Shown piece after piece: positions 3,836-61,085 of a stretch of 64,000 nucleotides of DNA. Origin of the DNA: Minisyncoccota bacterium (lineage in GTDB: Bacteria > Patescibacteriota > Minisyncoccia > Phycocordibacterales > UBA9973); assembly GCA_036405895.1 (NCBI GenBank), contig DASWWS010000002.1, forward strand, positions 124,029 through 188,028, in the 5' to 3' direction. The notes under the pieces were generated by a model that worked only from the letters and a program-made list of their open reading frames with translations, was not told the origin of the DNA and did no database searches. Made by a program: the position numbers and the translations under genes. Numbering within the stretch: the stretch's first letter is position 1; each line of letters begins with the position of its first letter.

Positions 3836-3866
3836 CAGCCTAACGAGGACCGTCCTCGTTAGGCTG
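3836..3866. terminator. palindromic hairpin (GGAC-N-GTCC family), bidirectional terminator
   Basis: CAGCCTAACGAGGACCGTCCTCGTTAGGCTG, flanked by an A-run and a T-run. Lies downstream of the DoxX gene. Confidence 0.75.
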
Positions 3867-3880
3867 TTTTTAAGTACGTA

Positions 3881-4312
3881 TTAGTACTGAGGCTGAGGCT
3901 CGTGCTTCATCAAGCGCATCAGGTGCGAAAGCGAGTATCGGCCGGGACCCTGCACCAAAAGCGGGATGAGGGCTGCAATGAATACGAGGTTCACTTCCCA
4001 TCCGCCGAGGAATTCCATGTTCATCAAATTCTTTACAACAAATGCAGCAACAATCATGACAATAATAAGGAGGAATGAAACAATCTCGGTTCCAATACCC
4101 ACAATGAGCGCCAGACCGCCGATTGTTTCAACAAGCGTCACAATCCATGCCATGAGTCCCGCAAGCGGGAATCCCCATGCAACGAAGCCTTCCGTTACCG
4201 CCTCAATCCCCATGTTGAACTTCTGCAAGCCATGAAGGAAGAAAGCAATACCGACAATAATGCGGACAATCAACAGCGCTGTATTTATTTTGCCTTTGAA
4301 TATATTTCTCAT
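3881..4312 (-). CDS. DoxX family membrane protein
   Basis: Four TM helices. LLIVRIIVGIAFFLHGLQKF is a DoxX-type N-terminus. TGATACACT-N7-ATG. Confidence 0.8.
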   Translation of the reverse strand: MRNIFKGKINTALLIVRIIVGIAFFLHGLQKFNMGIEAVTEGFVAWGFPLAGLMAWIVTLVETIGGLALIVGIGTEIVSFLLIIVMIVAAFVVKNLMNMEFLGGWEVNLVFIAALIPLLVQGPGRYSLSHLMRLMKHEPQPQY

Positions 4313-4348
4313 GTACTAAAGTGTATCACTGATAGGTATAACAGAAAA

Positions 4349-4371
4349 CTAGCAAGGACGGTCCTTGCTAG
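4349..4371. terminator. palindromic hairpin (GGAC-N-GTCC family)
   Basis: CTAGCAAGGACGGTCCTTGCTAG followed by TTTTTT. Identical 23-mer at 28059-28081. Confidence 0.7.
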
Positions 4372-4383
4372 TTTTTTATTTTT

Positions 4384-4534
4384 GCGGAGACGGCGAGAAT
4401 TTCTCCCTCGCCTCTCGTTGTGTCAGACACACTTCCTCGGGCTGGTCACCAGCTCAGTAGATTTCTTTGCTAAGAAATCATACTTCCGCTGTTCGAATCT
4501 CACCCGCAATGCAGTTTGCATTGCTCGTCTCCGC
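4384..4534 (-). ncRNA. tRNA-Ser-derived structured RNA, copy B (unclassified)
   Basis: 5' GGAGACG and 3' CTCGCCGTCTCCGC are identical to the adjacent tRNA-Ser(GCU). The T-stem GCGAG/CTCGC is retained with a 9-nt loop. Hairpins CAATGCA/TGCATTG and GATTTCTT-AGCA-AAGAAATC covary with copy A. Confidence 0.55.
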
Positions 4535-4538
4535 GAAT

Positions 4539-4575
4539 AAAAATGGCCCGACATTAGGTCGGACTCATTTTTATA
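4539..4575. terminator. bidirectional hairpin with A-run and T-run between element B and tRNA-Ser
   Basis: AAAAATGG-CCGAC-ATTAG-GTCGG-ACTCATTTTT. Confidence 0.7.
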
Positions 4576-4579
4576 CTCG

Positions 4580-4664
4580 CGGAGACGGCGAGATTCGAAC
4601 TCGCGAGGCTGTGACACCTGCCTCCTTAGCAAGGAGGTACAATCGACCACTCTGACACGTCTCC
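4580..4664 (-). tRNA. tRNA-Ser (anticodon GCU)
   Basis: Acceptor GGAGACG/CGTCTCC, anticodon arm CCTCC-TTGCTAA-GGAGG, long variable arm, T-arm GCGAG-TTCGAAT-CTCGC, discriminator G. Confidence 0.85.
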
Positions 4665-4725
4665 AGTACCGCCACTGTATCATGAAAATACAGTTTTTTA
4701 AAGACTACCCTGCTATACTCTATAC

Positions 4726-5025
4726 ATGACCACTACACACAAAGTACTTGTTGGAATTCTTATCATTATTGTTATTGCGCTTCTTGCGCGCTACGTTGTT
4801 TTTAAAGAAAAGTTCGATGAATGGGGTGCAGGACTCCAGCGTATTGAAGACTGGCAGACTGAGTACAAGCAAAAGAACCCAAATGCTTCCAAAGAAGAAA
4901 TGGATGCTGCATTTGAAGCTGGCATGGACAACATCACTGAGTGGAAAGCAGAGTATAAGCGCGATAATCCAGGCGCGACAGATGCCGAGGCGGATGCTGC
5001 ATTTTCCGCAATGTGGAATAACTAA
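4726..5025 (+). CDS. small membrane-anchored protein with tandem W-x-x-EYK-x-x-NP...DAAF repeats
   Basis: N-terminal TM helix, then two copies of a motif of about 28 aa. TGCTATACT-N6-ATG. Confidence 0.65.
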   Translation: MTTTHKVLVGILIIIVIALLARYVVFKEKFDEWGAGLQRIEDWQTEYKQKNPNASKEEMDAAFEAGMDNITEWKAEYKRDNPGATDAEADAAFSAMWNN

Positions 5026-5041
5026 TTCTATTTACTGATAT

Positions 5042-5626
5042 ATGCAACCAACCGGAAAAATTCGACTTGAGGCATTCAGCGACGGAGTATTCGCTATTGC
5101 CATCACGCTCCTTGCGCTCGAGCTCCATGTCCCCGCCTTTCTTGGGACCACTTTCTTAGGTTCTCTCCACGAACTCATCCCACTGATTCCTTCAATGCTC
5201 ACCTTTGTACTCTCATTTATCACCATTGCAATCTTTTGGGTCAATCACCACCAGCTCACCCAAAACTTTAGCACCATCACCAAGCGGCGCATTCTTTGGT
5301 CAAATATCCTCTTTCTCCTCTTCTTAACCCTCATCCCCTTTGTTACCGCTGCCGTAAGCATCAGCCCGACTGCGCCCTTAGCAGTATTCTTCTACAGTTT
5401 AGTATTGCTTGGTTCATCGCTCTCCTTCACCCTTATGCGCTATTTTGTGCACAAAGGCTGCGGCCAAAGCCATATCCCCATGACCCGTAGCCTCATTGGA
5501 CCAATCGTGTACCTCCTTGCGGTTATTGCTTCGATTTTTTCAGTCTGGATTGCCTATTTTCTCCTTGCTATCCCGGCATTATTCTATTTCCTCCCAAAAG
5601 GGAGCCTCAAAGAGACAGATGAGTAG
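5042..5626 (+). CDS. TMEM175/DUF1211 family potassium channel-like protein
   Basis: RLEAFSDGVFAIAITLLALEL signature and six TM helices. Confidence 0.8.
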   Translation: MQPTGKIRLEAFSDGVFAIAITLLALELHVPAFLGTTFLGSLHELIPLIPSMLTFVLSFITIAIFWVNHHQLTQNFSTITKRRILWSNILFLLFLTLIPFVTAAVSISPTAPLAVFFYSLVLLGSSLSFTLMRYFVHKGCGQSHIPMTRSLIGPIVYLLAVIASIFSVWIAYFLLAIPALFYFLPKGSLKETDE

Positions 5627-5727
5627 TCCCCATATCTATTTTTACTCAGTCGTGTTATAGTGGAAAAGTTGTAATGTGCTCCTTTGTTAAAGGTCCGTTG
5701 CAAAATAATAGTAAGTAACAACCAATA

Positions 5728-6027
5728 ATGAACAATAAAGTATTCGTCGGTAGCCTCTCATTCAATACCGACCAGAATGGATTAGCAGCATACTTCGCTT
5801 CAGTCGGCACTGTAACAAGTGCAAACATCATCACTGATAAGATGACTGGACGCAGCAAAGGTTTCGGCTTCGTAGAATTTTCTTCTGACGCTGAAGCTCA
5901 GGCTGCTGTTGATAAACTCAACAACACTGAACTCGACGGCCGCACACTTTTCGTTGACCTTGCACAGCCTCGCGCTGACAAGCCAGCAGGTGGCAACCGC
6001 GAGCGCACTGGTGGCTACAACCACTAA
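5728..6027 (+). CDS. RRM-type RNA-binding protein
   Basis: RNP-2 VFVGSL and RNP-1 KGFGFVEF motifs, with a Gly/Arg-rich tail. Confidence 0.9.
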   Translation: MNNKVFVGSLSFNTDQNGLAAYFASVGTVTSANIITDKMTGRSKGFGFVEFSSDAEAQAAVDKLNNTELDGRTLFVDLAQPRADKPAGGNRERTGGYNH

Positions 6028-6117
6028 TCCTCCAAAAAACCAGTCTTCGGACTGGTTTTTTGTTTGCACAGGTTTTTCTATTATTTTCCTTCCCTTGCCG
6101 TGATACACTACTTATAC

Positions 6118-6600
6118 ATGAATCGACACATCATCAAAAACACGCTCTTTGCACTGGTCAGTATCATTTTTCTTCTCAGCGCTATAGGAAAGTTTGCCGA
6201 CCGCGAGGCAATTGTCGAACTCTTTGCCAATGCTGGCATGGCAGACTATCTTATCCGCTTTGCAGTGATACAGCTGATTATTGTTGCGTGCCTGTGGTAC
6301 AAGCCGCTTCGCAGTCTTGGGGTATTGGTTGCAAGCGCATTCCTCGGAGGGGTGATTGTCATGATGATTAACACAGACTGCAGCCCTCTCTCGGCAGGAC
6401 TCACACTTATCATGCTGTGGATCGCGTACAAGCTTGAATGGTGGGGATACTGGAATCACTACACTGACACCTGTTCCTGCGGGTGGTGCAAGCTCCATGG
6501 AAAAGGGAAGGGCAAAAAAGCCGTCTGCCCCAATCCAAAAGACGAATGCGACTGCGGCAACCACTGTAAATGCCCCAAGGGCAAGTGCACCTGTTCGTAA
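6118..6600 (+). CDS. DoxX-like membrane protein with Cys-rich metallothionein-like C-terminal tail
   Basis: Four TM helices, then CSCGWCKLHGKGKGKKAVCPNPKDECDCGNHCKCPKGKCTCS. Start at ATG 6118 (TGATACACT-N8-ATG). Confidence 0.7.
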   Translation: MNRHIIKNTLFALVSIIFLLSAIGKFADREAIVELFANAGMADYLIRFAVIQLIIVACLWYKPLRSLGVLVASAFLGGVIVMMINTDCSPLSAGLTLIMLWIAYKLEWWGYWNHYTDTCSCGWCKLHGKGKGKKAVCPNPKDECDCGNHCKCPKGKCTCS

Positions 6601-6622
6601 TTGTGCGCTACAATAAAAGAAT

Positions 6623-8794
6623 ATGACGCTTGAGTCACCTATCGAAACATTGATCCGACTCAAGGAAGATACCCGAGCCGGCCTTCGCCGTTTGGGTATT
6701 TTTTCTGTGCGCGACCTTTTGTACCACTTCCCCACCCGCTATGCAGACGCAAGTATCTTTACTTCCATCGCAGGCCTGGTCGAAGGCGAGACGGCGACTA
6801 TCCGCGGAACCGTGAAAAAGATTGCCACGAAGAAATCATGGAAGACAAAAGTCCCTATGAGCGAAGGCGTGATCGAAGACATGAGCGGCACCATTACGGT
6901 TGTATGGTTCAATCAGCCATACTTGGCGCGCATGATTCGCACAGGAAGCGTCGTAGAGCTCACTGGAAAAGTCACGCTTTATAAAGACATGCCGGCATTG
7001 GTAAACCCCACCGCGCGCGAAGAGCGCGTGATGCCGATTGATAGCCACGACTCTTTATTTGGCACAGGCGACGCAAATGAGGGTGGAGTGTTGACGCCGG
7101 TGTATGCCGAAACAAAAGACGTATCGAGTTTGTGGTTCTCCCACACGATAGCGCGAGCACTTTCCACGCTCGATAGTATTCCCGACCATATCCCCAACAC
7201 CCTTCTTGAGCAATACTCACTACCAAGCCTCAAGACTGCGCTCATTTGGATACACAGCCCCAAAAACCACAACGATGCAACAATTGCGCGCAAGCGCTTT
7301 GCATATGACGAGATCTTTTCCATCAATGTTGCCCGCGCGCAAGAACGGTTGCGGGTAAAAAGTCAGCGTGCCTACTCTATCGATATGAGCACCATTGATA
7401 TGAATTATTTTTTAAAGCGCTTTTCTTTTCCTCTTACCACAGCGCAAAACTCTTCCATTGAACACATTCTCAAGGACCTCGAACAAGATGTGCCGATGTC
7501 GCGCCTCTTAGAAGGCGATGTAGGCAGCGGCAAAACCGCAGTTGCAGCAGTTGCAGCATATGCAACCGTCATGAACCGTCCGAGCAACTCTGGAAAAAAA
7601 CAAACGTTTGGAAACCTCCAAGTTGCATATATGGCGCCAACAGAGCTTTTAGCAACGCAGCACTTCGAATCCTTCATCGAGCTTTTTGAAGGAACGGGCA
7701 TTTCGCTTGCGCTCATCACCGGAAGCGGCTGCCGCAAGTATCCGAGCAAGGTCGCGTCGAACACAAAAGGATGGACCACTATTTCCCGCGCCCAGCTTTC
7801 AAAATGGATCGCGAACGGCGAGATACCGATAGTGATCGGCACGCACACGCTCATTCAAAAATCCCTTACCTTCAAGCATCTCGCACTCGCCATCATCGAT
7901 GAGCAGCACCGCTTCGGGCTCAAGCAGCGCCAGGGCCTCGCAAAAAAAGACACGCACTTCCCTCACTTGCTTTCAATGACTGCAACTCCCATCCCGCGCA
8001 CACTTGCACTAACCTTGTACGGCGACCTTGATCTCTCAGTGCTCGACGTATTGCCGGCGGGGCGCAAAAAGATCGAGACCTCGCTCGTCACCATTGATAA
8101 GCGCGAAGCAATGTATGAGGCCATCCGCGCCATTCTTAAAGAGGGCCGGCAGCTTTATGTCATCTGCCCGCGCATCGGCGACCCGGATCCGGATAAAGCA
8201 AAAGCAATACAAGCAAAGTCGGTAACAACAGAAGCGGTGCGCCTCCAGAAAGAAGTCTTCCCGGAATTCCGCATTGGTGTACTGCACAGCAAAATGACGA
8301 AAGAAAAAAAGGAGGACGCCATGAAAAGCTTTGCCAATCATGAAACCGATATATTGGTTGCAACAAGTGTGGTTGAAGTCGGGGTAAACGTGCCGAACGC
8401 AACCCAAATAATCATCGAAGGTGCCGAGCGCTTTGGGCTCTCCCAGCTTCACCAGCTTCGCGGCCGCGTTGCGCGCTCAAGCTACCAGGCGCACTGCTAT
8501 TTGTTTGCGGATGCAAAAACCGAGCGCACGCTCGAGCGCATGAACTATTTCCTGAAAGCAGAGGACGGTTTTGCGCTCGCCGAGTACGACCTCGCAATGC
8601 GCGGTACCGGCGAACTTACCGGCACCAGCCAGTGGGGCATCTCCGACATTGGCATGGAGGCGCTTCGCAACATCAAGCTTGTCGAAGCTGCGCGGCAAAG
8701 TGCGCAGGCGCTTGTTGCAAGCGATCCGACATTGGCCGACCACCCCCTCTTGGTTGCAATTGTTTCCAAATACGAAACCATGCATTTTGAATAA
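6623..8794 (+). CDS. recG: ATP-dependent DNA helicase RecG
   Basis: Wedge/OB N-terminus, Walker A GDVGSGKT, DEQH box, QLHQLRGRVAR motif VI, 723 aa. Confidence 0.95.
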   Translation: MTLESPIETLIRLKEDTRAGLRRLGIFSVRDLLYHFPTRYADASIFTSIAGLVEGETATIRGTVKKIATKKSWKTKVPMSEGVIEDMSGTITVVWFNQPYLARMIRTGSVVELTGKVTLYKDMPALVNPTAREERVMPIDSHDSLFGTGDANEGGVLTPVYAETKDVSSLWFSHTIARALSTLDSIPDHIPNTLLEQYSLPSLKTALIWIHSPKNHNDATIARKRFAYDEIFSINVARAQERLRVKSQRAYSIDMSTIDMNYFLKRFSFPLTTAQNSSIEHILKDLEQDVPMSRLLEGDVGSGKTAVAAVAAYATVMNRPSNSGKKQTFGNLQVAYMAPTELLATQHFESFIELFEGTGISLALITGSGCRKYPSKVASNTKGWTTISRAQLSKWIANGEIPIVIGTHTLIQKSLTFKHLALAIIDEQHRFGLKQRQGLAKKDTHFPHLLSMTATPIPRTLALTLYGDLDLSVLDVLPAGRKKIETSLVTIDKREAMYEAIRAILKEGRQLYVICPRIGDPDPDKAKAIQAKSVTTEAVRLQKEVFPEFRIGVLHSKMTKEKKEDAMKSFANHETDILVATSVVEVGVNVPNATQIIIEGAERFGLSQLHQLRGRVARSSYQAHCYLFADAKTERTLERMNYFLKAEDGFALAEYDLAMRGTGELTGTSQWGISDIGMEALRNIKLVEAARQSAQALVASDPTLADHPLLVAIVSKYETMHFE

Positions 8795-8835
8795 AAAAGC
8801 CACACAATATTACTGTGTGGCTTTCTCTCATTGTG

Positions 8836-9372: not shown

Positions 9373-9576
9373 GGTCTATTTAGTTTTTATGGTTCAAATT
9401 TACTTTGTTTATTTTTTATATTATATCACTTTATTTATAAAAAGTCAATAGAGCTCCTCTGCCTAAAAATTGTCTTTTACGTCAGGACTGATAGAATCAA
9501 AGGGTTCTCATTTCCGCTCTTAGCTGTTTGGTGTACGGGCCAAGCAAGGTAGGGGTTATAGAAAATCAATATACTT

Positions 9577-9650
9577 CCGCTCTTAGCTCAGTTGGTTAGA
9601 GCGCCGAGCTTATACCTCGGTGGTCCATGGTTCGAATCCATGAGGGCGGA
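9577..9650 (+). tRNA. tRNA with anticodon UAU (Ile, AUA-decoding)
   Basis: Acceptor CCGCTCT/AGGGCGG (one G-U), D-arm TAGCTCAGTTGGTTAGAGC, anticodon arm CCGAG-CTTATAC-CTCGG, T-arm CATGG-TTCGAAT-CCATG. Confidence 0.8.
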
Positions 9651-9744
9651 CATTAAGTAAACAAATATGCAGTATGCCTCTGAGGCAATGGCGTGTAGCG
9701 TTTCGACCCCAGGGAGAGGCGGACAAGTGCTATACTGTACACAT

Positions 9745-10215
9745 ATGAATGAATTTGTAGCAAAGAAACTCGGCGAAGTGCTCGCCTTTAACCAAGTCGG
9801 CACGGACACCTATGAAAAAGGAAAAGAAGCACTCATCGCAGTACTGGGAGCTGAACGTTTTGCGGATATTGAAGACAAGAACCGCATTCACGGAGAAGCA
9901 GTGATGAAGATCGCGACCGACGCGGGCATGATCGACACAACGCTTGCAAAAGCCGAAAAGACCGGAGAGAAGCTCAAGGCTATGCGCGACCTCTATGTTG
10001 GTGACCAATGGGACAATGCCACAGAGCTGATGGAATGGAGCGGATTTTTCGAAGGCGCAGCAATCGTGCACTGGGCGCTGGTGCGCGGTGCGGCAGAAGG
10101 CATGAATGACGAAACCCTCCTCGAACTTTCAAACGAAGGAGTGAATTGGCACTATGAGCTTTTGGAAATGGCTGAAAGCGAACTCGGCACCACCGGACAG
10201 AACAAGGCTTCCTAA
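9745..10215 (+). CDS. hypothetical helical protein (possibly a ferritin-like four-helix bundle)
   Basis: ORF 9667..10215. Start moved to ATG 9745 (TGCTATACT-N8-ATG) so it no longer abuts the tRNA. The functional guess is weak. Confidence 0.55.
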   Translation: MNEFVAKKLGEVLAFNQVGTDTYEKGKEALIAVLGAERFADIEDKNRIHGEAVMKIATDAGMIDTTLAKAEKTGEKLKAMRDLYVGDQWDNATELMEWSGFFEGAAIVHWALVRGAAEGMNDETLLELSNEGVNWHYELLEMAESELGTTGQNKAS

Positions 10216-10219
10216 TAAT

Positions 10220-10278
10220 CAGAAGGACCGTCCTTCTGAAAATAAAAACAACCTAACGAGGACCGTCCTCGTTAGGTT
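10220..10278. repeat. two adjacent GGAC-N-GTCC palindromes acting as a convergent terminator
   Basis: CAGAAGGACCGTCCTTCTG (10220-10238) and AACCTAACGAGGACCGTCCTCGTTAGGTT (10250-10278) followed by TTTTT. Confidence 0.8.
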
Positions 10279-10289
10279 GTTTTTATTGT

Positions 10290-12188
10290 TTAAAGCTCGA
10301 TTTTCTTTAATGGAATGCCGTGAGCGGAAATAATTGCTTCATATTCCGGCTGTTCGAGCGTTTCCACTTCGATTAGCTTTGCGGTGATTGCTTCGAGCAC
10401 ACCCTTGTGTTCGGTAAGAACAGTGCGGGCACGCTCAAATCCTTCTTTCATGATGCGCTGCACTTCGGAGTCGACAAGTGCACTAGTCTGCTCTGAATAT
10501 TCTTTTCCTTTCACTCCTTCGCCGAACATTGCGCGGCCTCCGTCGTTTTCAAGGGCAAGCGGGCCGATGGCATCGCTCATCCCCCATCGTGTCACCATGG
10601 CGCGTGCAAGCGCGGTTGCAACCTGAAGGTCGTTTGAAGGACCGGTTGTCACGTCCCCAAAGATTGATTCTTCTGCAACGTATCCTGCAAGCGACATTGC
10701 AATGTCGTCGAGATATTCTTTCTTGGTGGTAAGCTTTCGCTCTTCAAGCGGAAGCTTCAGCGTGTACCCACCGGCGCGCCCTCGTGCAACAATAGAAACT
10801 TTGTGCACCGGGTCAGCATCCGGAAGAACTGATGCAACAAGCGCATGCGCTGCTTCATGATACGCCGTGATTTTCTTTTCTTTCTTTGTCAGCAAATGGC
10901 TCTTGCGCTCAGGCCCGATCATCACTTTTTCAATGGAGCGTACAAGGTCAAACTGCGATATCTTCTTTCGATTTTCGCGTGCTGCCAAGATTGCACCTTC
11001 GTTCATTAATGAGTAGAGGTCGGCTCCGGAGAATCCGGGTGTGCGCTCTGCTATCACCTTGAGATTCACGTCTTCTGCAAACGGCTTTTTGGTGCTGTGC
11101 ACATTCAAAATGTCTTCGCGGTCGCGACGGTCTGGAAGGTCAAGCATCACTCGGCGGTCAAATCGGCCTGGACGCAACAGTGCTGGGTCCAATACATCGC
11201 TTCGGTTCGTTGCCGCCATCACGATTACCTTGTCGTTCGGTTCAAAGCCGTCCATCTCCACCAATATTTGGTTGAGTGTCTGTTCTCGCTCGTCGTTTCC
11301 ACCGCCATATCCGCCTCCGCGTACGCGTCCTACCGCATCAATTTCATCGATAAAAATAATGGACGGTGCTGCGCGCTTTGCCATCTTGAAAAGGTCGCGC
11401 ACGCGCGATGCGCCCACACCGACAAACATCTCAACAAATTCTGATCCTGAAAGATGGAAGAACGGCACACTTGCCTCCCCCGCTACAGCGCGAGCCAAGA
11501 GCGTCTTCCCTGTTCCTGGTGCACCGGCGAGCAATACTCCTTTTGGAATGCGCGCTCCGATATCCAAAAACTTTTTTGGATTCTTCAAAAAGTCCACAAT
11601 TTCTTTGAGTTCTTCCTTGGCTTCGCGCGCACCTGCAACATCTTTGAATGTTACCCTGTTTGTCGTATCGCTTGGGTCAGTGATGCGCGCTTTTGACTGC
11701 CCGAAATTAAATGCCTGCATGCCAGCACCCTTTGCCTGGCGTGTAAGCATCCAAAAAAAGAATCCAATCAATACTACCGGCAAAAGTATTGGGAGAATGG
11801 TAAGGAAAAAGAATGCGAGGCCTGATGCGCTGGCAACAGTAATGTCGACTGCGCTGATGCGAGGCTCTTCAACACCATATGCTGCCAATGTTTCCACCAA
11901 TGAAGCACTTGGTTCTTTTTTGCTTTCAAGAATTGTCTCGTCTGTTTTTGTAACAGTGAGCGCTTGGTCGTCGATGACAATGCTCTTCACCTCCCCTGCC
12001 TGCACAAGGCGTGCAACTTCTGAAAGGGTCACCACTTCGTTCTTTTCTGTCCCCATACCAGAGACAACAGAGTAGCCGGCAGTAAGGAGTGCGAAGATAA
12101 GGAGGGTTGAAAATATATAGGAAGAAAGAGAGCGCTTGGGAGGCGTCTTTTTTATAGGGTTCGGTGTAGGGATTTCTTGTTTGGACAT
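10290..12188 (-). CDS. ftsH: ATP-dependent zinc metalloprotease FtsH
   Basis: Two N-terminal TM helices, AAA+ Walker A GAPGTGKT, an SRH region, HEAAH zinc motif. Confidence 0.97.
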
Positions 12189-27623: not shown

Positions 27624-28022
27624 TTACACCAAAAAGAGTAGTTTTGGAATGAAAATGATCGCTCCTATTGAGGCTGCACTGAGAACCGAGATAAGCACAG
27701 CGCCGGCTGCGACGTCTTTGGTATCTTTTGCGTACGGATGATACTCGGGGCTGGTGAGATCGATATCTATCTCAAAGGCGGTATTAATCGCTTCTGTTAC
27801 CAAAACAGCCGCCATCGCCAAAATAAGGATGCACCACTCCACCGGAGCGATGCGTAGCCATACCCCAAGAGCGGTTACAAGAGCTGCTGCGGCAATTTGG
27901 ATCCAAAAGTTGTGCTGGGTGCGCACAATGATGCGAAGTCCCCGTACGGCGTATTTAAAGCTTCGAGCGCGTGCGATAAGCGAGAACCGTTTCTTTTCCG
28001 AAATATGTTTTACAGCATTCAT
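27624..28022 (-). CDS. dgkA: diacylglycerol/undecaprenol kinase family (DgkA-like) membrane protein
   Basis: Three TM helices, FKYAVRGL...EAINTAFE motif. TGCTATACT-N6-ATG. Lies between rplB and rpsS. Confidence 0.8.
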   Translation of the reverse strand: MNAVKHISEKKRFSLIARARSFKYAVRGLRIIVRTQHNFWIQIAAAALVTALGVWLRIAPVEWCILILAMAAVLVTEAINTAFEIDIDLTSPEYHPYAKDTKDVAAGAVLISVLSAASIGAIIFIPKLLFLV

Positions 28023-28058
28023 AGCGTGAGTATAGCAAACAAACAGCAGATACCCCTC

Positions 28059-28162
28059 CTAGCAAGGACGGTCCTTGCTAGATTTGTTTAACGAGGAAAT
28101 TCCCTTCTCTCAGAAGGACTGTCCTTCTGAGAGAACAAAAAACTCCCGAACGGGAGTTTTTT
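28059..28162. repeat. three consecutive hairpins: two GGAC-N-GTCC palindromes plus a canonical terminator
   Basis: CTAGCAAGGACGGTCCTTGCTAG (28059-28081), CTCTCAGAAGGACTGTCCTTCTGAGAG (28107-28133), AAAAAACTCCCG-AA-CGGGAGTTTTTT (28137-28162). Confidence 0.85.
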
Positions 28163-28181
28163 GCGATAGTTACTATAGAGA

Positions 28182-29027
28182 TTATCGAGTGCCGTTTTTG
28201 CGGCGAGTGATAACGTTCTTGTTTGAGTATTTCTTCGGAGTACGAGTGCGAACACCGTATGCCTGCTTACCGTGACGAGTCTTAGGACCTCGGCGAAGAC
28301 CAATACCTTGAACACCCTCACCACCACCGTGTGGGTGGTCAACCGGGTTCATGGCAGTACCACGAACAGTTGGGCGAATACCCTTCCATCGTGAGCGTCC
28401 AGCCTTACCGTACTTCACGAGCTTGTGTTCGTGGTTAGACACTTCACCAACTGATGCCCATGCAATGTCCTGCACGCGGCGAATTTCGGTCGAAGGCATC
28501 TTGAGCTGTGTGTAGCCCTCCTGCTGCGCAACAACTTGTGCGAATGAACCGGCTGAGCGAACCATCTTTGCTCCTGCTCCTGGCTTGATTTCGATATTGT
28601 ATACAAAAGTACCAGAAGGGATTTTGTTCAAAGGAAGGCGGTTCCCTACTTCAATAGGAGCGTTTTCTGAAACGAGGAATGTGTGTCCTGCAGTAACGTT
28701 CTTTGGAACTACTACATAGCGCTTTTCACCATCGGCATAGACTGCAACACCTACGAATGCTGATCGGTTTGGATCGTATTCAACAGTGGTGATTTTCGCT
28801 GGGATATCGTGCTTGTTGTAGTGGAAGTCCACCAAACGGTATAAACGCTTGTTACCACCGCCCTTGTGAGCTGTAGTGATGCGGCCCATGTTGTTTCGTC
28901 CAACAGAGCGCTTGCGACCCATAGTCAAAGACTTCAAGGGCGTGTCTGTTGTGAGAACCTTGCGGTAATCGATCGTAACGGTGTTACGGCGAGACTGTGT
29001 TGTTGGTTTGTATGTTTTCATTGCCAT
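28182..29027 (-). CDS. rplB: 50S ribosomal protein L2
   Basis: GRNNMGRITT...HPHGGGEG. Confidence 0.97.
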   Translation of the reverse strand: MAMKTYKPTTQSRRNTVTIDYRKVLTTDTPLKSLTMGRKRSVGRNNMGRITTAHKGGGNKRLYRLVDFHYNKHDIPAKITTVEYDPNRSAFVGVAVYADGEKRYVVVPKNVTAGHTFLVSENAPIEVGNRLPLNKIPSGTFVYNIEIKPGAGAKMVRSAGSFAQVVAQQEGYTQLKMPSTEIRRVQDIAWASVGEVSNHEHKLVKYGKAGRSRWKGIRPTVRGTAMNPVDHPHGGGEGVQGIGLRRGPKTRHGKQAYGVRTRTPKKYSNKNVITRRKNGTR

Positions 29028-41274: not shown

Positions 41275-42685
41275 ATTCCGAGAGCTCTCCCTTAAAGAGG
41301 GTGAGAAAAAATAAACAGTAGATTCCAACAACACTCCATGCCGAAAGGTCTGGAGTGTTATAGAGAGGAAGCAATGAAAACAATTGGAGTCCCTCTATCA
41401 CTACAGTTCCCACAAATGAAAGCAGTGCGCCTAACGCAGCCGCAACAGGAGCAATAAAAGAGCTTATGAGAACAACGGCTCCTCCTATCATAATCACGGG
41501 GGTAGCAACACCAAGAAAAATATTTGCTGGCACTGACGCAAGCGGAGCTATTCCTGCAAAATACATGAGATATGGCAGCATAAACAACGGCAGTAGCACC
41601 GCAAGCATCACAAGCTCCCGTATATTTACTATTGCGGTTTTTGGAATAAATGAAAACAGCATTTCGGCTTTTGGAATCACAGTGACCATACAAAGCGTTG
41701 CAAGAAATGAGAGATGAAAGCCGGGGTCGTAAAAAACCATTAGGGGCGACCAGAAGAAAAATACTATATAGCTAATAAACAGCGCTCGGAGGGCATTGTA
41801 TTCTTGAAGTCCCATCGTTGCCAAAAGTGCAATAGAACCCATCACTCCTGCACGCACAGCGGCAACCCCGGCCCCGCTGATAAGAACAAGAAAAATGATC
41901 CCAAAAAATGTCAGTACAAGGCGCACTCGAGTAGGAACACTGCGAAACATCACTCCAATAAATCCGCCCAAGAGGGTAATGTTGTAGCCTGAAAGGACTA
42001 ATACATGAAGCACTCCTGTAGTGCGAAAGAGGTCTTCTGTATCTTTTGGTATGCCGCCTTGGTACCCAAGCACCATACCAGAAACAATGCCGTCGACAGG
42101 AAATGAAATATGCCGGACAAATATATCAGAGAGCACATAGCGAGCAGTTGCAGCAACCCGTCGTGCGCTGAGAGCTCCAACGTGAACAAGAGCAATTTCG
42201 CTATCGTACATCACTGCAACAATACCTTTGCTTTCCAAATAATCCTTGTATGCAAAAAGCCTCCCTGTATCAGTAATAAAATCCTGTGGTTGCTCAACAA
42301 TACCGGTGATACTAACAATATCTCCGGGTACTACTGAAAGTGCTTCATATACAGTGACCTGTATTCTTTGGGAATAAGCCTCATCGCGTACTGTAAGGTT
42401 TGTACGGTCAAGCTCTCTGTTAACTGAGAGTACTGTTGCTTCAACTCTTCGCTCTCCAAACAATTCCAGCTGTAGCACCGTTTGCCGACTCCACACCAAA
42501 AGTCCTCCGATGATGCAAAAAATCACTACTGCACTTCCGGCTACCATCCCCTTTTTACTCGATACATACAGCCATGTGCACGCACCGAAAAATATACTAA
42601 TAAGGGCTAATTGTAAAAACGATACTCCAAACACATGGAACAATGCCGCACCGAAAGTAAGAAAAAGTATGGCAATCTCTACCAT
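41219..42685 (-). CDS. comEC: ComEC/Rec2 DNA internalisation channel, N-terminal OB (DUF4131) plus competence TM domain
   Basis: 488 aa polytopic protein with a DUF4131-like N-terminus and a competence-domain TM core. No beta-lactamase domain in this ORF. Confidence 0.8.
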   Translation of the reverse strand: MVEIAILFLTFGAALFHVFGVSFLQLALISIFFGACTWLYVSSKKGMVAGSAVVIFCIIGGLLVWSRQTVLQLELFGERRVEATVLSVNRELDRTNLTVRDEAYSQRIQVTVYEALSVVPGDIVSITGIVEQPQDFITDTGRLFAYKDYLESKGIVAVMYDSEIALVHVGALSARRVAATARYVLSDIFVRHISFPVDGIVSGMVLGYQGGIPKDTEDLFRTTGVLHVLVLSGYNITLLGGFIGVMFRSVPTRVRLVLTFFGIIFLVLISGAGVAAVRAGVMGSIALLATMGLQEYNALRALFISYIVFFFWSPLMVFYDPGFHLSFLATLCMVTVIPKAEMLFSFIPKTAIVNIRELVMLAVLLPLFMLPYLMYFAGIAPLASVPANIFLGVATPVIMIGGAVVLISSFIAPVAAALGALLSFVGTVVIEGLQLFSLLPLYNTPDLSAWSVVGIYCLFFLTLFKGELSEFISRVRKNLLPQTSSYSQ

Positions 42686-42730
42686 ACTTTCACTCTAGCA
42701 AAACCACTATTAAATTTTCTTTAAGAGTAC

Positions 42731-42770
42731 CTAACGAGGACGGTCCTCGTTAGAAGGACCGTTCTTCTGA
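42731..42770. repeat. two abutting GGAC-N-GTCC palindromes
   Basis: CTAACGAGGACGGTCCTCGTTAG (42731-42753), then AGAAGGACCGTTCTTCT (one mismatch). Confidence 0.8.
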
Positions 42771-42773
42771 AAT

Positions 42774-43505
42774 TTAGAGAAGGCTTGCGAGGGTGTACTC
42801 TTGGATAAGTCCTGTTTCTTCACCCTTTGAAAATACCTTTTTATACTTTGCACCCTTCTTTCCTTTCACCCGCGCTTCGCATTCTGCCCATGTCTTATCG
42901 GTGTACACTTTTCCGCCCACCGATGAAACATAGGAGTATGCGGGACCTGTCTCTTTTTTTGCCCCTGGTTTTTTTACAGGCTTTTGCACTGATTTCGGTG
43001 GAGTATCAATCAGCTGTTGCTCGTATGCTTTCAGTGTTCCGTTAAAAAGGGTGTGGGGATTTTTCAACGCAGCCGCAACAGCAAGTTCGTCGCAGCGGTC
43101 ATTGTATTGGTGCCCGCTGTGTCCTTCGACTTTCACCAATTCAAGTTGTTTTCCAAAGTGGTCGCGCAGTTCCAAAAGCGCCTGCCACTGTATTTTGTTT
43201 TCCACGGGCTTTTTTGTTGCCGTGAGCCAGCCATTTCTTTTCCACCCATCGAGCCAGCTCTCAAGGCCACGGAGTACGTAGATCGAGTCGGCGTGCACCA
43301 ACACTTTCGCATCAGGAAAATGCTTCTTTGCATATTCCAATCCCTTTTCTACTGCCAAAAGCTCCATTTGGTTATTGGTCGCAGGGGTAACATTGCCGGC
43401 AAGCTCTACTGCTTTTGTGTCAGTCATCACTATTGCCGCCCACCCCCCGGGGCCTGGGTTTCCACGTGAAGCGCCGTCAGTATAAATCGTTACAGTGTTT
43501 TTCAT
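42774..43505 (-). CDS. rnhA: ribonuclease HI with C-terminal hybrid-binding (RNase H1 N-terminal/caulimovirus VI-like) domain
   Basis: YTDGASRGNPGPGG, NNQMEL, HADS, HSGHQYNDRCDELA. The C-terminus YSYVSSVGGKVYTDKTWAECEARVKGKKGAKYKKF fits the HBD pattern. Start at ATG 43505. Confidence 0.85.
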   Translation of the reverse strand: MKNTVTIYTDGASRGNPGPGGWAAIVMTDTKAVELAGNVTPATNNQMELLAVEKGLEYAKKHFPDAKVLVHADSIYVLRGLESWLDGWKRNGWLTATKKPVENKIQWQALLELRDHFGKQLELVKVEGHSGHQYNDRCDELAVAAALKNPHTLFNGTLKAYEQQLIDTPPKSVQKPVKKPGAKKETGPAYSYVSSVGGKVYTDKTWAECEARVKGKKGAKYKKVFSKGEETGLIQEYTLASLL

Positions 43506-55667: not shown

Positions 55668-55671
55668 ATAA

Positions 55672-56445: not shown

Positions 56446-56449
56446 ATAA

Positions 56450-57187: not shown

Positions 57188-57188
57188 A

Positions 57189-57521
57189 TTACTGGTTAAA
57201 ACTGTTAAGCATTTGTAATCGATCACTTGAAGTTGTCGTTGTCGGCGTAGAAGTAGATCCAAGAAGTTGTCCTTGTGCATACGTGTTCTGTACGTCTTCA
57301 TTTACGGGAAGAGAAGATTCTCTCAACCGCTCGAGGACACCTTCCGGGGTCTTCTCTTTTTGCTTTGCAATAAAATACCATACCCCCAAAAGAATCAACA
57401 CAATAACCAAAATAATAGCAATCATGGTGCGCTGTTTTTTCTGGTCGTAATCACTGGGAACACCGTGCTCTTCAAGAACGCGAGGGTTATAGTTATTGTT
57501 TTGTGCAACAGATGTGGGCAT
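57189..57521 (-). CDS. single-pass membrane protein
   Basis: Central TM helix IAIILVIVLILLGVWYFI and a Thr-rich tail. Its stop abuts the P3 start. Confidence 0.6.
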   Translation of the reverse strand: MPTSVAQNNNYNPRVLEEHGVPSDYDQKKQRTMIAIILVIVLILLGVWYFIAKQKEKTPEGVLERLRESSLPVNEDVQNTYAQGQLLGSTSTPTTTTSSDRLQMLNSFNQ

Positions 57522-57534
57522 GATGATAAATATA

Positions 57535-59019
57535 CTAGAATTCTATGAATATTGGCTTCTTTTTCTCGATTGCAACTGTAGCCGCCGCTTCGCTTCCACA
57601 TTGTACCGTGACAGAGGTTATTGCGGGAGGAACTATAATGTCGCTCATTATGCTCCATATACCACTGTTGCCTTGCTGCACCAGGTTTACAGTACGAGTG
57701 CTCGCACCCCATGTAATATTACAACTTGCGCCTGCACCGATGCGAGAAATGATAATTCGCTGTCGACTTCCTGGGGTGGTACCAACCGGACAAGCAGAGA
57801 GGCCGCCAGCCGGAATAGGAGAACCATCAGGACAGTATGGATCATGGGCAACTCCATCACATCCCGTACAATTTGGACCAGGATCAGGAAGAACAGTAAT
57901 GGTTGTTTTTACACACATTCCTCCTTCGAGAATATAGCCGGTAGGAATCGTCTGTTGTGCACCGTCGATATTAGGACACATATCGTCTTGAACACAATTA
58001 GCACCTGATGCCGTGTATCCGTACGGGATGGTTGTCTGCGTACCGTCTATGTTTGCACACATATCAGGCGGTGTTATTTCACAACTAAAGCTTGTACTCA
58101 CCGCATCTGAGAAAAATGGTGCAGTTGCAGGACTTCGGGAGTGCGCCCATGCACCATAGCTCGCTCCTGGAATGCCGGCGGTAGTATAGCTCGTTGCGGC
58201 CCCTTCCCAACAGCTGTCTCCTGGATTATTACAAGGACCTGCACCTTCTTCCCATCCGTTTGCAAGATTATTAACACGGAAACTGTACCAATCGGCACCC
58301 GATACTGGAGCAACTGTTACAGTAATTTGATCTCCTGGAGCTGGACATGATGCAGTAATAGCAGGCACCGGAGGGCGGCACTGGAATGAAGGGTCAACAG
58401 TGGGCGCTCCCTGTGACCACACAGTCCCAGCCGGACAAGAGACACTTCCTACAGATCCATTCACACTTGTCCACCCTATCACTTCAGACCCCCATAGAGA
58501 GCCAGTGAGTGTGCGTGTCCCACCACTATCGGGCCCCAGTGTAAGGCCGTACCCGCTTCCCGAAAGGGAAAGAAAGCCATCCCAGTCTCCCAAATAAGCA
58601 TTATTTGCCAAGGCACCACTACACCCTGAAGCAAAAACAGAACAAGCGCGAGCCCATCCTTTTATTCCATATGATCCGTCAGGACCTGGATATGCCAAGT
58701 CTACATAGGCGCCTTGCGTGCAGCCACTCGTCGGACATCCAGCCGGAGAAAAAGTGATCCATCCGATATTTGAAGACCACGCGGTCCCTGAAATAGCTCC
58801 ACTTGCCGGATCAACAGAAACGCCATAGTCAGAACCGGTACAGGAGGAGGTATTGGTTGGGTCAGTACAGTTATTGAGCGATATCCACCCGATATTTGAA
58901 GACCACATATTCCCACTTGCATTGCTATTGGTACCAGCGCGCAATGATGATGCAGCAAAGAGCGCAAGAGTGGTCATAGTGGCGAGAGCGATGAGAAGTA
59001 CTTTGGTGCGAGTCTTCAT
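57535..59019 (-). CDS. secreted Cys-rich repeat protein P4 (WSSNIGWI repeats and C-x-N-I-D-G-x-Q-x-T-I-P-x-G-Y repeats)
   Basis: Signal MKTRTKVLLIALATMTTLALFAA (start at ATG 59019). Promoter TTGCAC-18-TATACT. Repeats MWSSNIGWISL, AWSSNIGWITF, DMCANIDGTQTTIPYGY, DMCPNIDGAQQTIPTGY. Confidence 0.75.
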   Translation of the reverse strand: MKTRTKVLLIALATMTTLALFAASSLRAGTNSNASGNMWSSNIGWISLNNCTDPTNTSSCTGSDYGVSVDPASGAISGTAWSSNIGWITFSPAGCPTSGCTQGAYVDLAYPGPDGSYGIKGWARACSVFASGCSGALANNAYLGDWDGFLSLSGSGYGLTLGPDSGGTRTLTGSLWGSEVIGWTSVNGSVGSVSCPAGTVWSQGAPTVDPSFQCRPPVPAITASCPAPGDQITVTVAPVSGADWYSFRVNNLANGWEEGAGPCNNPGDSCWEGAATSYTTAGIPGASYGAWAHSRSPATAPFFSDAVSTSFSCEITPPDMCANIDGTQTTIPYGYTASGANCVQDDMCPNIDGAQQTIPTGYILEGGMCVKTTITVLPDPGPNCTGCDGVAHDPYCPDGSPIPAGGLSACPVGTTPGSRQRIIISRIGAGASCNITWGASTRTVNLVQQGNSGIWSIMSDIIVPPAITSVTVQCGSEAAATVAIEKKKPIFIEF

Positions 59020-59208
59020 GAATACATAGAGTATAGTGCACATACGACAACACGTGCAAGCGTTGTAAAGAAAATGTGTGGATAAAAAGTTTTTCTCCTC
59101 TGTCTTGCGTCCTGTAGCGAGTATGCTATACATATATATGTACATGTCCCGGGCACACCTATGGGGCATTTTTAGTAAATTAGTAGGACAAAATAATAAC
59201 AATCACAT

Positions 59209-60501
59209 ATGTTAGACATCAAAGCATTAAAATTAGCACTCGAACAATTGGAAACTGAACGCCGCATCGGCCGCGACAAGCTCGTCGATGCGATCGAGCA
59301 GTCACTCGCAGCAGCGTATAAGAAAGAATACGGCAAAAAGGGCCAGGTCATCCGCGCGATGATCGACCTTGATGCAGGCGCTGTTTCATTTGAACAAGTA
59401 AAGACCGTTGTTGACGACACGCTCGTGCGCTTTTTGGCAGAAGACGAGGAGATTGCAGAAGACGATACAGATCTTCGCGAGCGCTTCAACGAAGAGAAGC
59501 ATATTCTTCTCGACGACGCCCAGATGATTAAAGCTGGCGCCACTATCGGCGACGAGCTAGTATTCACTCTCGAACCAAAAGACGATTTTGGCCGCATTGC
59601 TGCACAAACTGCAAAGCAAGTCATCATGCAGCGCATCCGCGAAGCGGAACGCACCAGCATCATGGAAGAGTTCGGCGGAAAAGAAGGCGATATTATCTCA
59701 GGCTACATTCAAAAAGTTGACCGAGGAAGCGTATTCGTGGACTTCAACCGCGCAACAGGCATTATCCCGATTAGCGAGCAGATTCCCGGCGAGCGCTACG
59801 TTCGCGGTGCCCGCATTCGAGCATACCTCTACCATGTCGAAGACACTCCTCGCGGAATCACCCTTCGCCTCTCCCGCACTCATCCAAAATTCCTCGAAAA
59901 GCTCTTTGCGCTTGAAAGCCCAGAAGTTGCAAGCGGCGTAGTTGAAATCAAAGCAATTGCTCGCGAACCAGGAAGTCGTTCGAAAATTGCTGTATGGACA
60001 GACGACGCAAACATTGACCCAGTTGGTTCATGTGTAGGCCAGAAAGGTGTGCGCGTTTCAACTGTAATGAACGAGCTCGGGGGTGAAAAAATCGATATCA
60101 TCGAATGGTCTCCTGAGACTGCAGAGTTCGTGCAGAAGTCTCTCTCACCTGCGAGAGTACTCGACCTTGAGCTCAACGATGAAGAACACAAAGTAAGCGT
60201 TGAAGTTACTCCCGACCAACTCTCTCTTGCAATCGGTAAGGGTGGACAAAACGTGCGCCTTGCAGCAAAGCTCACTGGCTGGAAAATCGACATCAAGGGC
60301 TCTGAAGCAGAGGTAACCGAAGAGAGTGAAAGCACAGAGGGCGACGACTTTGTTTCACTCAAAGATCTCGCCGTGTCTGACACGGCAACAGAAGAATCTT
60401 CTGAAGAAGTTGCAGAAGAAACTGTAACAGAAGCTGAACCAGTTGCAGAAGAAACAACTGAAAAAGTTGCTGACGAAGTATCAGAAGAAGAATCAAAATA
60501 A
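59209..60501 (+). CDS. nusA: transcription termination/antitermination factor NusA with acidic C-terminal tail
   Basis: N-terminal domain, S1, two KH domains (GKGGQNVRLA), 430 aa. Confidence 0.95.
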   Translation: MLDIKALKLALEQLETERRIGRDKLVDAIEQSLAAAYKKEYGKKGQVIRAMIDLDAGAVSFEQVKTVVDDTLVRFLAEDEEIAEDDTDLRERFNEEKHILLDDAQMIKAGATIGDELVFTLEPKDDFGRIAAQTAKQVIMQRIREAERTSIMEEFGGKEGDIISGYIQKVDRGSVFVDFNRATGIIPISEQIPGERYVRGARIRAYLYHVEDTPRGITLRLSRTHPKFLEKLFALESPEVASGVVEIKAIAREPGSRSKIAVWTDDANIDPVGSCVGQKGVRVSTVMNELGGEKIDIIEWSPETAEFVQKSLSPARVLDLELNDEEHKVSVEVTPDQLSLAIGKGGQNVRLAAKLTGWKIDIKGSEAEVTEESESTEGDDFVSLKDLAVSDTATEESSEEVAEETVTEAEPVAEETTEKVADEVSEEESK

Positions 60502-60505
60502 TTCT

Positions 60506-61036
60506 ATGAATCTCCTTCACGAAATTACTGCAGGAAACAATGTGCCCGACATCATCAATGTCATCATTGAAATTCCAAAAGGTTCAAAAAATAAATACGA
60601 AATCGACAAGGAAACCGGCCTCATCATGCTCGACCGTGCAATGCACACGAGCCAAGACTATCCTTTCGACTACGGCTTCATGCCGCAAAGCCACTGGGAA
60701 GACGGCGACCCATTGGATGTTGTAGTCCTCACCACCTATCCGCTCGCGCCCGGCATCTTGGTAAAGGTTCGCCCAGTCGGGATTGTAAACATGATCGACG
60801 ACGGCGACTCTGATGCGAAGATCATCGCAGTGCCTGACAAGGATCCTCGATTCGACCATGTACAAGACCTCTCTGACGTAAACAAGCACACCATCAAAGA
60901 GATCGAGCATTTTTTTCTGACGTACAAACAAATTCAGAAGAAAGACGTTTCGATTGATGGAATCGGGAACAAGGCAGACGCTCAAGCTGCAATCCTCAAA
61001 AGCCAAGAACTCTACAAAGAAAAGTTTCAGAAATAA
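60506..61036 (+). CDS. ppa: inorganic pyrophosphatase (family I)
   Basis: IEIPKGSKNKYE...DGDPLDVVVL...DDGDSDAKIIAV. Start at ATG 60506. Confidence 0.95.
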   Translation: MNLLHEITAGNNVPDIINVIIEIPKGSKNKYEIDKETGLIMLDRAMHTSQDYPFDYGFMPQSHWEDGDPLDVVVLTTYPLAPGILVKVRPVGIVNMIDDGDSDAKIIAVPDKDPRFDHVQDLSDVNKHTIKEIEHFFLTYKQIQKKDVSIDGIGNKADAQAAILKSQELYKEKFQK

Positions 61037-61060
61037 TCAAACCAATAGGTTTATACAAAA

Positions 61061-61085
61061 ACGAGCAAGGACGGTCCTTGCTCGT
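61061..61085. terminator. GGAC-N-GTCC family palindromic terminator
   Basis: ACGAGCAAGGACGGTCCTTGCTCGT flanked by AAAA and TTTTT. Confidence 0.8.

Follow-up and report, generated by a model that had tools for sequence, protein, structure and literature searches.

The 64,000-nt window analysed here (positions 124,029 to 188,028 of contig DASWWS010000002.1, from a Minisyncoccota bacterium) carries, in gaps beside genes such as doxX, ftsH, rplB, comEC, and ppa, a recurrent family of short palindromes built on GGAC-N-GTCC. They are considered below as candidate repetitive extragenic palindromic (REP) elements. An earlier note on this DNA had counted nine copies, and the count was borne out. The core AGGACNGTCCT has eight exact matches (centred at 3851, 4360, 10229, 10264, 28070, 28120, 42742, and 61073), compared with 0.05 expected and at most 1 found in dinucleotide-preserving shuffles; GGACNGTCC is likewise present 8 times, against an expected 0.36. 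Allowing one mismatch in AGGACNGTCCT adds a degenerate copy at 42755-42765 and two coding-region matches (32069 and 35059), the latter being at chance level (~ 1). In total, eight exact AGGAC-N-GTCCT copies and the degenerate one are distributed over six loci, at a density of about one per 7 kb (Table 1).

All copies except one are perfect palindromes, 21-47 nt long with arms of 10-23 nt, and a hairpin census resolved the longer ones as listed in Table 1. Perfect palindromes with an odd centre and arms of at least 9 nt number 11 in the window, and 8 of them belong to the family; the density of such structures is 172 per Mb, vs 26 per Mb in 1.32 Mb of sequence from relatives. The outer stems of the subfamilies differ by compensatory changes that keep the hairpin intact, and pairing around the common apex is perfect in each of the arms CTAACG/CGTTAG, CTAGCA/TGCTAG, CGAGCA/TGCTCG, and TCAGA/TCTGA. 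RNA folding gave z-scores between -7.6 and -9.5 in five loci and of -2.8 in the sixth, at 42720-42785. Outside the palindromes, 8-mers from the half-arms are almost absent (two of them have a single stray copy), and the repeat unit is therefore the hairpin. Half-arm 6-7-mers mostly do not exceed expectation, with CGAGGAC somewhat above it (13 vs 5.1). No Rfam family covers the hairpins at the gathering or E-value threshold, the only matches being microRNA noise, and a literature search with CTAGCAAGGAC and related strings returned unrelated primers only.

The nine copies are all non-coding, as previously claimed. Only 11.6% of the window is non-coding according to its open reading frame (ORF) map, which gives P ~ 2e-6 for six independent loci. 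Subfamily sequences and coordinates also stand, except for the third subfamily-2 copy, CGAGCAAGGACGGTCCTTGCTCG, which spans 61062-61084 and not 61063-61083. Subfamily 3 had been described as always sitting beside subfamily 1 or 2, and this is so in three of three cases (35, 50, and 18 nt from centre to centre). Since each unit is symmetric, inverted orientation is undefinable in these three doublets of unlike subfamilies, spaced by 18-50 nt. Each of the six loci is on the 3' side of one or more genes or tRNAs.

A transposase gene bracketed by the palindrome

To follow the repeat into other genomes, a metagenome scan was done with the pattern CTARCRAGGACNGTCCTYGYTAG, which covers subfamilies 1 and 2. 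It yielded 70 stretches, about one of which is a chance match by rough estimate. Nearly all carry exactly CTAGCAAGGAC-N-GTCCTTGCTAG, i.e. the subfamily-2 23-mer with any central base, on contigs that span 28-67% G+C, and 79 of 91 copies are intergenic according to a crude ORF map. The REP-bearing gaps that could be classified (45) comprise 12 convergent, 24 tandem, and 9 divergent ones. Occurrence in all three types of gap means that the element is not tied to 3' ends, so the earlier statement that all copies are at 3' ends holds for the window and fails for the family, with its nine divergent-promoter gaps.

On contigs with 59-67% G+C, the inner 23-mer is set within G+C-rich palindromes of 35-50 nt (L147 ~ 1520-1575, L092 ~ 1185-1235, and L096 ~ 845-895). 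The neighbouring gene in L147 codes for a DUF1501 protein, the named relatives of which belong to Gemmataceae (Planctomycetes). Based on contigs of this type, the REP core is not confined to Patescibacteria.

Clustering of the ORFs next to the palindromes disclosed a protein of ~ 225 aa encoded directly adjacent to them in six loci. In L097, L125, and L129, its gene has the palindrome on either side, and the same layout fits L117 and L145, which are cut by contig ends. A search in the opposite direction, starting from the protein and not from the palindrome, retrieved six further contexts, and a palindrome of the same design was found at the same places in all of them (Table 1). The bracketed gene is thus present in ten loci of other genomes, belonging to different organisms (L097, L125, L129, L117, L158, L161, L164, L165, L167, and L168). 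The bracketing palindrome is the subfamily-2 23-mer or a variant with the same apex, AGGAC-N-GTCCT (or AGAAC-N-GTTCT); in L097, L125, L129, and L117 it is identical to the core at 4349-4371 in the window. In seven of nine loci, the ATG follows the centre of the upstream palindrome at a distance of 40-41 nt. The downstream palindrome often includes the stop codon.

The bracketed gene is predicted, from sequence and from a structural model, to encode a divergent Y1 HUH tyrosine transposase of the REP-associated tyrosine transposase (RAYT) type. The Pfam family Y1_Tnp (IS200-like) matches four of five homologues tested with 25-30 bits (cut-off 23), the remaining one, L122, scoring 20.6. The HFH motif (H85-F-H87) is invariant and aligns to H59-M60-H61 of the E. 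coli TnpA-REP/RAYT structure 4ER8, while the invariant Y145 and N149 (in GYIHLNP) align to its Y115 and N119. In 4ER8, the HUH motif, Y115, and N119 are the catalytic and metal-binding residues (PMC3479197). A Foldseek search with the AlphaFold model placed 4er8_A on top (E 1.6e-3, probability 1.0), with the transposases of IS608 and ISDra2 next. With at least 836 protein clusters, the homologue family is found mostly in Nomurabacteria, Paceibacterota, and Parcubacteria, and some homologues are named “REP element-mobilizing transposase RayT” in the JGI annotation.

A diverged RAYT with 42% identity (L122, 2300-3140) is flanked by a different palindrome, CCCTAGGTCTNACCTAGGG. In this locus a canonical AGGAC-type copy is also present, 340 nt upstream of the gene and inside a long ORF. 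Combining this difference with the variant palindromes found at variant enzymes, we conclude that repeat and enzyme co-vary. What the clade has in common is the apex AGGAC-N-GTCCT (or AGAAC-N-GTTCT), set on an outer stem that varies, a design into which the three subfamilies of the window fit.

A Y1 transposase gene bracketed by the dispersed palindromes of its genome is the defining architecture of a REPtron (PMC8266576). Because the same palindrome brackets a Y1 gene in other genomes, the repeats are assigned to REP elements of a RAYT/REPtron-type system, and we consider it likely that the nine palindromes of the window are short, non-autonomous, hairpin-forming REPs from a family paired with a RAYT/TnpA-REP Y1 enzyme. 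The pairing spans Paceibacteria/Nomurabacteria-type Patescibacteria and at least some Planctomycetes-like contigs. Of the earlier proposal of a REP/MITE-like element (MITE standing for miniature inverted-repeat transposable element), the REP half is therefore supported by ten loci in which the palindrome brackets a RAYT-type Y1 HUH gene. The other suggestion, a protein-binding site, may be retained insofar as RAYTs bind the folded single-stranded hairpin, as established for E. coli (PMC3479197).

Alternative readings and possible mechanism

A number of observations weigh against assignment to REP elements. In tblastn searches, no RAYT homologue was detected in the 64-kb window or in L001-L081, and a cognate enzyme is assumed for the organism of the window. 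Sequence similarity to characterised RAYTs is weak. The sole NCBIfam match, “REP-associated tyrosine transposase” (REP_Tyr_transpos), scores 27-44 bits against a cut-off of 80, and the AlphaFold model is of moderate confidence (predicted local distance difference test, pLDDT, 71). A single-sequence RAYT search of the Protein Data Bank (PDB) gave no match; with a profile of 19 sequences, the best match was 4ER8 (E 0.47). The tetranucleotide tag of classical REPs is absent: of 77 unique copies, 3 have GTAG/CTAC no more than 8 nt from the palindrome, and none has CGTC there. Metagenome loci were chosen by means of the palindrome itself, and their uniformity is partly a selection effect, e.g. CTAG at the stem base, which is imposed by the search pattern and varies in RAYT-anchored loci.

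Copy number is a further point of this kind. The exact 23-mer is rare on long metagenome contigs (about one per 100-250 kb), and in 12-20 kb around RAYT genes few copies exist besides those flanking the gene. A high copy number is therefore not general, and may be peculiar to the lineage of the window. The motif occurs once in the ftsH surroundings of 80 relatives, 1.32 Mb in all, which points to a lineage-specific expansion. Insertion polymorphism was also not observed: same-species assemblies are all identical, and relatives (FtsH at most 77% identical) are too distant for an orthologous empty site to be aligned.

The closest relatives of the window by FtsH (63-77% identity) are patescibacterial metagenome-assembled genomes that bear the names Nomurabacteria, Taylorbacteria, Paceibacterota or, in a loose sense, “Saccharibacteria”; the source of the window is an uncultured, Paceibacteria/Nomurabacteria-like member of Patescibacteria. 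They have the gene order around ftsH and smpB in common with the window, and their FtsH loci are syntenic at the gene level only. The window sequence itself is 100% identical in Logan assemblies of runs SRR11449177-88. The Logan contig L001, from the same organism, ends exactly at 10254, the first base of the REP core, inside the copy at 10241-10287. A break of this type is as expected of a multi-copy sequence and suggests that REPs fragment short-read assemblies.

The strongest competitor holds that the palindromes are ordinary Rho-independent terminators, with stems made alike by local duplication or convergent selection and without any enzyme or mobility. It agrees with the 3' position of six out of six window loci and with the high stability of the hairpins. 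A U-tract after a G+C-rich stem, typical of intrinsic terminators, was called by a scan in three loci (3832-3870, 4345-4375, and 10241-10287) and recognised by eye in a fourth (61053-61093) as a T5 run, which the scan missed because the run is absorbed into the stem and pairs with the A-run. At 28059-28135 and 42731-42768, however, there is no U-tract on the transcribed strand, and the copy at 28105-28135 lies directly beside a separate canonical terminator. Two-hairpin doublets would be useless for termination. Other strong hairpins in the window consist of an A-tract, a G+C-rich stem, and a T-tract, with stems unrelated to the family, so the earlier remark on its ordinary terminators was correct. 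Moreover, the same 23-mer exists in genomes of 28-67% G+C, including in divergent-promoter gaps, and brackets a transposase gene. The association with RAYT largely refutes an explanation by termination alone, which we rate as quite unlikely. If the palindromes are REPs, termination or 3'-end stabilisation would be a secondary, co-opted role of some copies. Those with A-/T-tracts (3832-3870, 4345-4375, 10241-10287, and 61053-61093) are probably bidirectional intrinsic terminators or 3'-end stabilisers, as predicted from their flanks, and those without U-tracts (28059-28135 and 42731-42768) would be plain insertions.

Another possibility is a double-stranded operator, in which a dimeric transcription factor recognises GGAC-N-GTCC as the signal of a regulon. 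As in many operators, the 11-bp symmetric core is invariant and its central base free, and in seven loci a copy lies ~ 40 nt upstream of the RAYT start, where autoregulation is plausible. Symmetry extends over 10-23 bp of subfamily- and locus-specific sequence, which indicates that a hairpin was selected for or generated, and not a protein footprint, and partial arms are present in tandem and nested arrangements. Window copies follow genes instead of residing in promoters, and the genes they flank (doxX, ftsH, rplB/diacylglycerol kinase, RNase H/comEC, ppa) have no common function. An operator is accordingly very unlikely.

The MITE half of the earlier proposal fared no better. MITEs mobilised by a conventional DDE-type transposase would be short, dispersed, palindromic, and intergenic like the elements studied here, but no internal segment separates terminal repeats, direct repeats in the flanks are no commoner than in the control and thus give no sign of a target-site duplication, the flanks form inverted and not direct repeats, and the associated gene is of the Y1 HUH and not of the DDE type; we find this origin highly improbable. 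Inverted pairs of the DNA uptake sequence (DUS) of Neisseria are known to form terminators. An uptake signal of this sort, to which the comEC gene and type IV pilus cluster in the window and one doublet directly upstream of comEC might point, is scarcely credible given that single half-arms are not over-represented and 8-mers hardly occur outside the palindromes, coding DNA contains no copies, one repeat per ~ 7 kb is far below the density of DUS or of the uptake signal sequence (USS), and the association with a Y1 transposase suggests a different process.

Four further candidates were rejected. A restriction-modification site (GGACC/GGNCC in some cores) found no support, in a judgement made by eye only and without examination of the restriction-modification genes of the genome; it is not common to all copies, as the central base varies. 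Likeness to a sigma-54 promoter (GG...TTGC) was dismissed by eye because the spacing is one base short and the symmetry stays unexplained. Phage origin is unlikely, with only 2 matches of a 17-nt core in IMG/VR. An assembly or adapter artefact is ruled out by the same sites in independent assemblies and collections and by locus-specific flanks.

The anatomy of the elements gives some indication of how REP copies could arise. Outside the conserved 11-nt arms, the flanks are self-complementary with locus-specific sequence, with complementarity at positions 12-19 of 0.74, 0.55, 0.56, 0.40, 0.47, 0.39, 0.40, and 0.47, compared with ~ 0.28 further out. Extra half-arms at a distance of up to 60 nt accompany 10 of 57 canonical copies (0.25 expected) and are nested in every case, left arms lying to the left and right arms to the right (12 cases vs 0 of the opposite). 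Complete REP-within-REP palindromes were found in L142 and L125. Such palindromes, or ladders of truncated left arms, are located upstream of RAYT genes (L142 ~ 660-730, L125 ~ 1100-1170, L084 ~ 790-900, and L164 9869-9971). Palindromic flanks and nested arms fit either insertion of new copies at the apex of hairpins already present or copying by a fold-back step.

How REPs spread is unresolved (PMC8266576). If it behaves like TnpA-REP of E. coli and the IS200/IS605 enzymes (PMC8266576, PMC3479197), the enzyme would recognise the hairpin folded in single-stranded DNA, then cut and rejoin at its foot, and in this way could spread copies into non-coding DNA. It might prefer the apex of existing hairpins, which would explain both the palindromic flanks and the nested copies.

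Relation to known systems

Systems of the REP/RAYT kind have been studied mainly in Proteobacteria. The closest to the one proposed here are group 3 REPtrons of Pseudomonas, Stenotrophomonas, and Marinomonas, in which REPs are short perfect palindromes preceded by GTAG (PMC8266576, PMC2817692, PMC3116915, PMC5581495). Shared with REP/RAYT systems are short extragenic hairpin repeats in multiple copies, often at gene ends and sometimes in doublets (here without definable orientation); bracketing, seen in genomes other than that of the window, of a Y1 HUH gene by the same repeat, which co-varies with the enzyme; lack of a target-site duplication; and conservation of the active-site HUH, Tyr, and Asn. 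In contrast to classical REPs, the window family has no GTAG or CGTC tetranucleotide at the foot and is fully symmetric around one free base, so that REP and inverted REP (iREP) orientations are indistinguishable. Not the foot but the apex of the hairpin is conserved, palindromy continues into the flanks beyond the arms, and some copies are nested. The enzyme differs from classical RAYTs in its length (~ 225 aa, with a C-terminal extension of ~ 70 aa) and in falling below the NCBI RAYT cut-off, and the hosts, ultra-small Patescibacteria, differ from known REP hosts, with a low copy number in most relatives. No paper linking REPs or RAYTs to Patescibacteria was found in a literature search of incomplete coverage. 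Apparently, this is a known kind of system not yet described in Patescibacteria.

Elements of the IS200/IS605 family (IS608, ISDra2) are similar in having a Y1 HUH transposase for subterminal hairpins in single-stranded DNA, with their enzymes as the next-best structural matches after 4er8_A, and in the absence of target duplication. They differ in that here both flanking hairpins are one symmetric palindrome instead of distinct left and right ends, and the hairpin is dispersed without the gene; a multi-copy gene was not seen, albeit without a rigorous test. DUS of Neisseria and USS of Haemophilus resemble the family as conserved short sequences forming inverted pairs at gene ends in a genome with competence genes. 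Unlike them, half-sites are neither single nor within genes, the density is much lower, and a transposase partner exists.

In several genomes, the RAYT gene is part of a type IV pilus cluster (L158 10001-10693, L161 10001-10681, L165 6001-6714, and L117 864-1547), in three positions, where it separates pilM from pilN/pilO, separates the pilins from the prepilin peptidase, or lies immediately upstream of pilB. Elsewhere, homologues adjoin uvrA/uvrB, rpoB, or rplJ. Conceivably, though this is unlikely, the RAYT/REP pair of Patescibacteria is not just a selfish repeat but a domesticated system for processing single-stranded DNA, tied to natural competence or gene insertion. Such a reading draws on the three pilus-cluster positions (L158/L161, L165, and L117), on conservation of the REP core over hosts of 28-67% G+C, on the apparent entry of new copies into existing hairpin apices, and on inserted-looking single genes bracketed by or adjoining REPs (doxX, diacylglycerol kinase, and two genes in L087). 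If so, the hairpins would mark DNA for cutting and joining by RAYT, the substrates being incoming single strands or else gene cassettes bounded by REPs.

If the palindromes are REPs as proposed, the family resides in Patescibacteria, the ultra-small and streamlined genomes of which would not be expected to contain repeats at all. A simple symmetric hairpin with a motif conserved at the apex and no GTAG guide would offer a compact model for substrate and target choice by Y1 enzymes, with nested copies and palindromic flanks hinting at insertion into hairpin apices. In practice, the repeats break short-read assemblies of such genomes, and terminator-like hairpins matter for the annotation of transcription units.

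Individual copies and their neighbourhood

Table 1. Palindrome copies in the window, and palindromes flanking the transposase gene in loci retrieved by the protein search
Feature	Position or locus	Strand	Sequence and structure	Arms in hairpin census (nt)
REP copy, subfamily 1	3832-3870	none	39-nt perfect palindrome AAAACAGC...GCTGTTTT; core CTAACGAGGAC-C-GTCCTCGTTAG at 3840-3862	19
REP copy, subfamily 2	4345-4375	none	core CTAGCAAGGAC-G-GTCCTTGCTAG at 4349-4371; AAAA/TTTT flanks	15
REP copy, subfamily 3	10219-10239	none	TCAGAAGGAC-C-GTCCTTCTGA; first of doublet	10
REP copy, subfamily 1	10241-10287	none	47-nt perfect palindrome; core at 10253-10275; A-tract and T-tract flanks	23
REP copy, subfamily 2	28059-28081	none	CTAGCAAGGAC-G-GTCCTTGCTAG	
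Orphan half-arm	28088-28097	+	TTAACGAGGA; like subfamily-1 left arm	
REP copy, subfamily 3, extended stem	28105-28135	none	TTCTCTCAGAAGGAC-T-GTCCTTCTGAGAGAA	15
REP copy, subfamily 1	42731-42753	none	CTAACGAGGAC-G-GTCCTCGTTAG	
Degenerate REP copy, subfamily 3	42752-42768	none	AGAAGGAC-C-GTTCTTCT; one mismatch	
REP copy, subfamily-2 variant	61053-61093	none	41-nt perfect palindrome; core CGAGCAAGGAC-G-GTCCTTGCTCG at 61062-61084; A5/T5 flanks	20
Flanking palindrome	L158		CTAGCAAGAAC-N-GTTCTTGCTAG	
Flanking palindrome	L161		CTAGCTAGAAC-N-GTTCTAGCTAG	
Flanking palindrome	L164		TTAAGCAAGAAC-N-GTTCTTGCTTAA; 3 copies	
Flanking palindrome	L165		TCGCAAGGAC-N-GTCCTTGCGA	
Flanking palindrome	L167		TGCAAGGAC-N-GTCCTTGCA	
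Flanking palindrome	L168		AAGCTAGGAC-N-GTCCTAGCTT	

The first copy is positioned 11 nt past the doxX stop (3881, minus strand) and upstream of the tRNA-Ser gene at 3693-3779. The scan found it terminator-like on the minus strand, and its RNA fold has -29.2 kcal/mol (z -7.6). The second, at 4345-4375, separates the tRNA-Ser(GCU) unit from the start of doxX (4312) and is terminator-like on the plus strand (fold z -7.8). The third begins 4 nt past the stop of the ORF at 9667-10215 (plus strand) and is followed by the 47-nt palindrome, placed between this ORF and the convergent ftsH (10290-12188, minus strand). The 47-nt copy looks like a bidirectional terminator, being terminator-like by scan with fold z-scores of -9.5 and -8.1 on the two strands. 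Its flank AAAACAAC...GTTGTTTT is the flank of 3832-3870 except for one compensated pair, the two subfamily-1 copies centred at 3851 and 10264 having in common AAAACA(G/A)C...G(C/T)TGTTTT.

The diacylglycerol-kinase gene (minus strand) starts at 28022, 37 nt downstream of the copy at 28059-28081, which has no U-tract on the transcribed strand and is unchanged in six Logan assemblies. Between this copy and the second REP of the same gap is the orphan half-arm, probably a decayed third copy. The copy at 28105-28135 adjoins an unrelated canonical terminator hairpin (28136-28163), which follows rplB (stop 28182, minus strand), and three separate hairpins are predicted here. The kinase gene (27624-28022) is inserted between rplB and rpsS in the S10 ribosomal-protein operon, preceded by the canonical terminator and two REPs, and the arrangement with rplB (27624-28182) is identical in six independent Logan assemblies.

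The subfamily-1 copy at 42731-42753, which has no U-tract and is not called terminator-like by the scan, separates two minus-strand genes, for RNase H (stop at 42774) and comEC (start at 42685); the degenerate copy overlaps it by 2 nt. The last copy is found 17 nt past the stop of the inorganic pyrophosphatase gene ppa (61036, plus strand), with a fold z-score of -8.4.

Two REPs, each of another subfamily, bracket the doxX gene (3881-4312), which lies between two duplicated units, each composed of a tRNA-Ser gene and a structured region. In L087, two single genes (for an NTPase and a subtilase) are each bracketed by REPs as well. These cases could represent REP-associated gene insertion, or mere clustering in intergenic DNA.

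The two structured regions (3478-3649 and 4382-4535, both on the minus strand) are 150-170 nt long and begin ~ 40 nt downstream of each tRNA-Ser. They fold very strongly (z -9.9 and -6.1, respectively), and the stem that closes them is a copy of the acceptor stem in the tRNA-Ser before it. Parts of the two are ~ 80% identical, differences in hairpins are compensatory, and neither has an Rfam match. They may be an undescribed tRNA-linked structured RNA, or the relic of a duplicated tRNA. The tRNA-Ser at 3693-3779 (minus strand) has the unusual anticodon ACU (A34), and a normal GCU copy is located at 4579-4664. An unusual anticodon, UAU, is also carried by the tRNA-Ile at 9577-9651 (plus strand); in other bacteria, tRNA-Ile UAU accompanies loss of the lysidine pathway.

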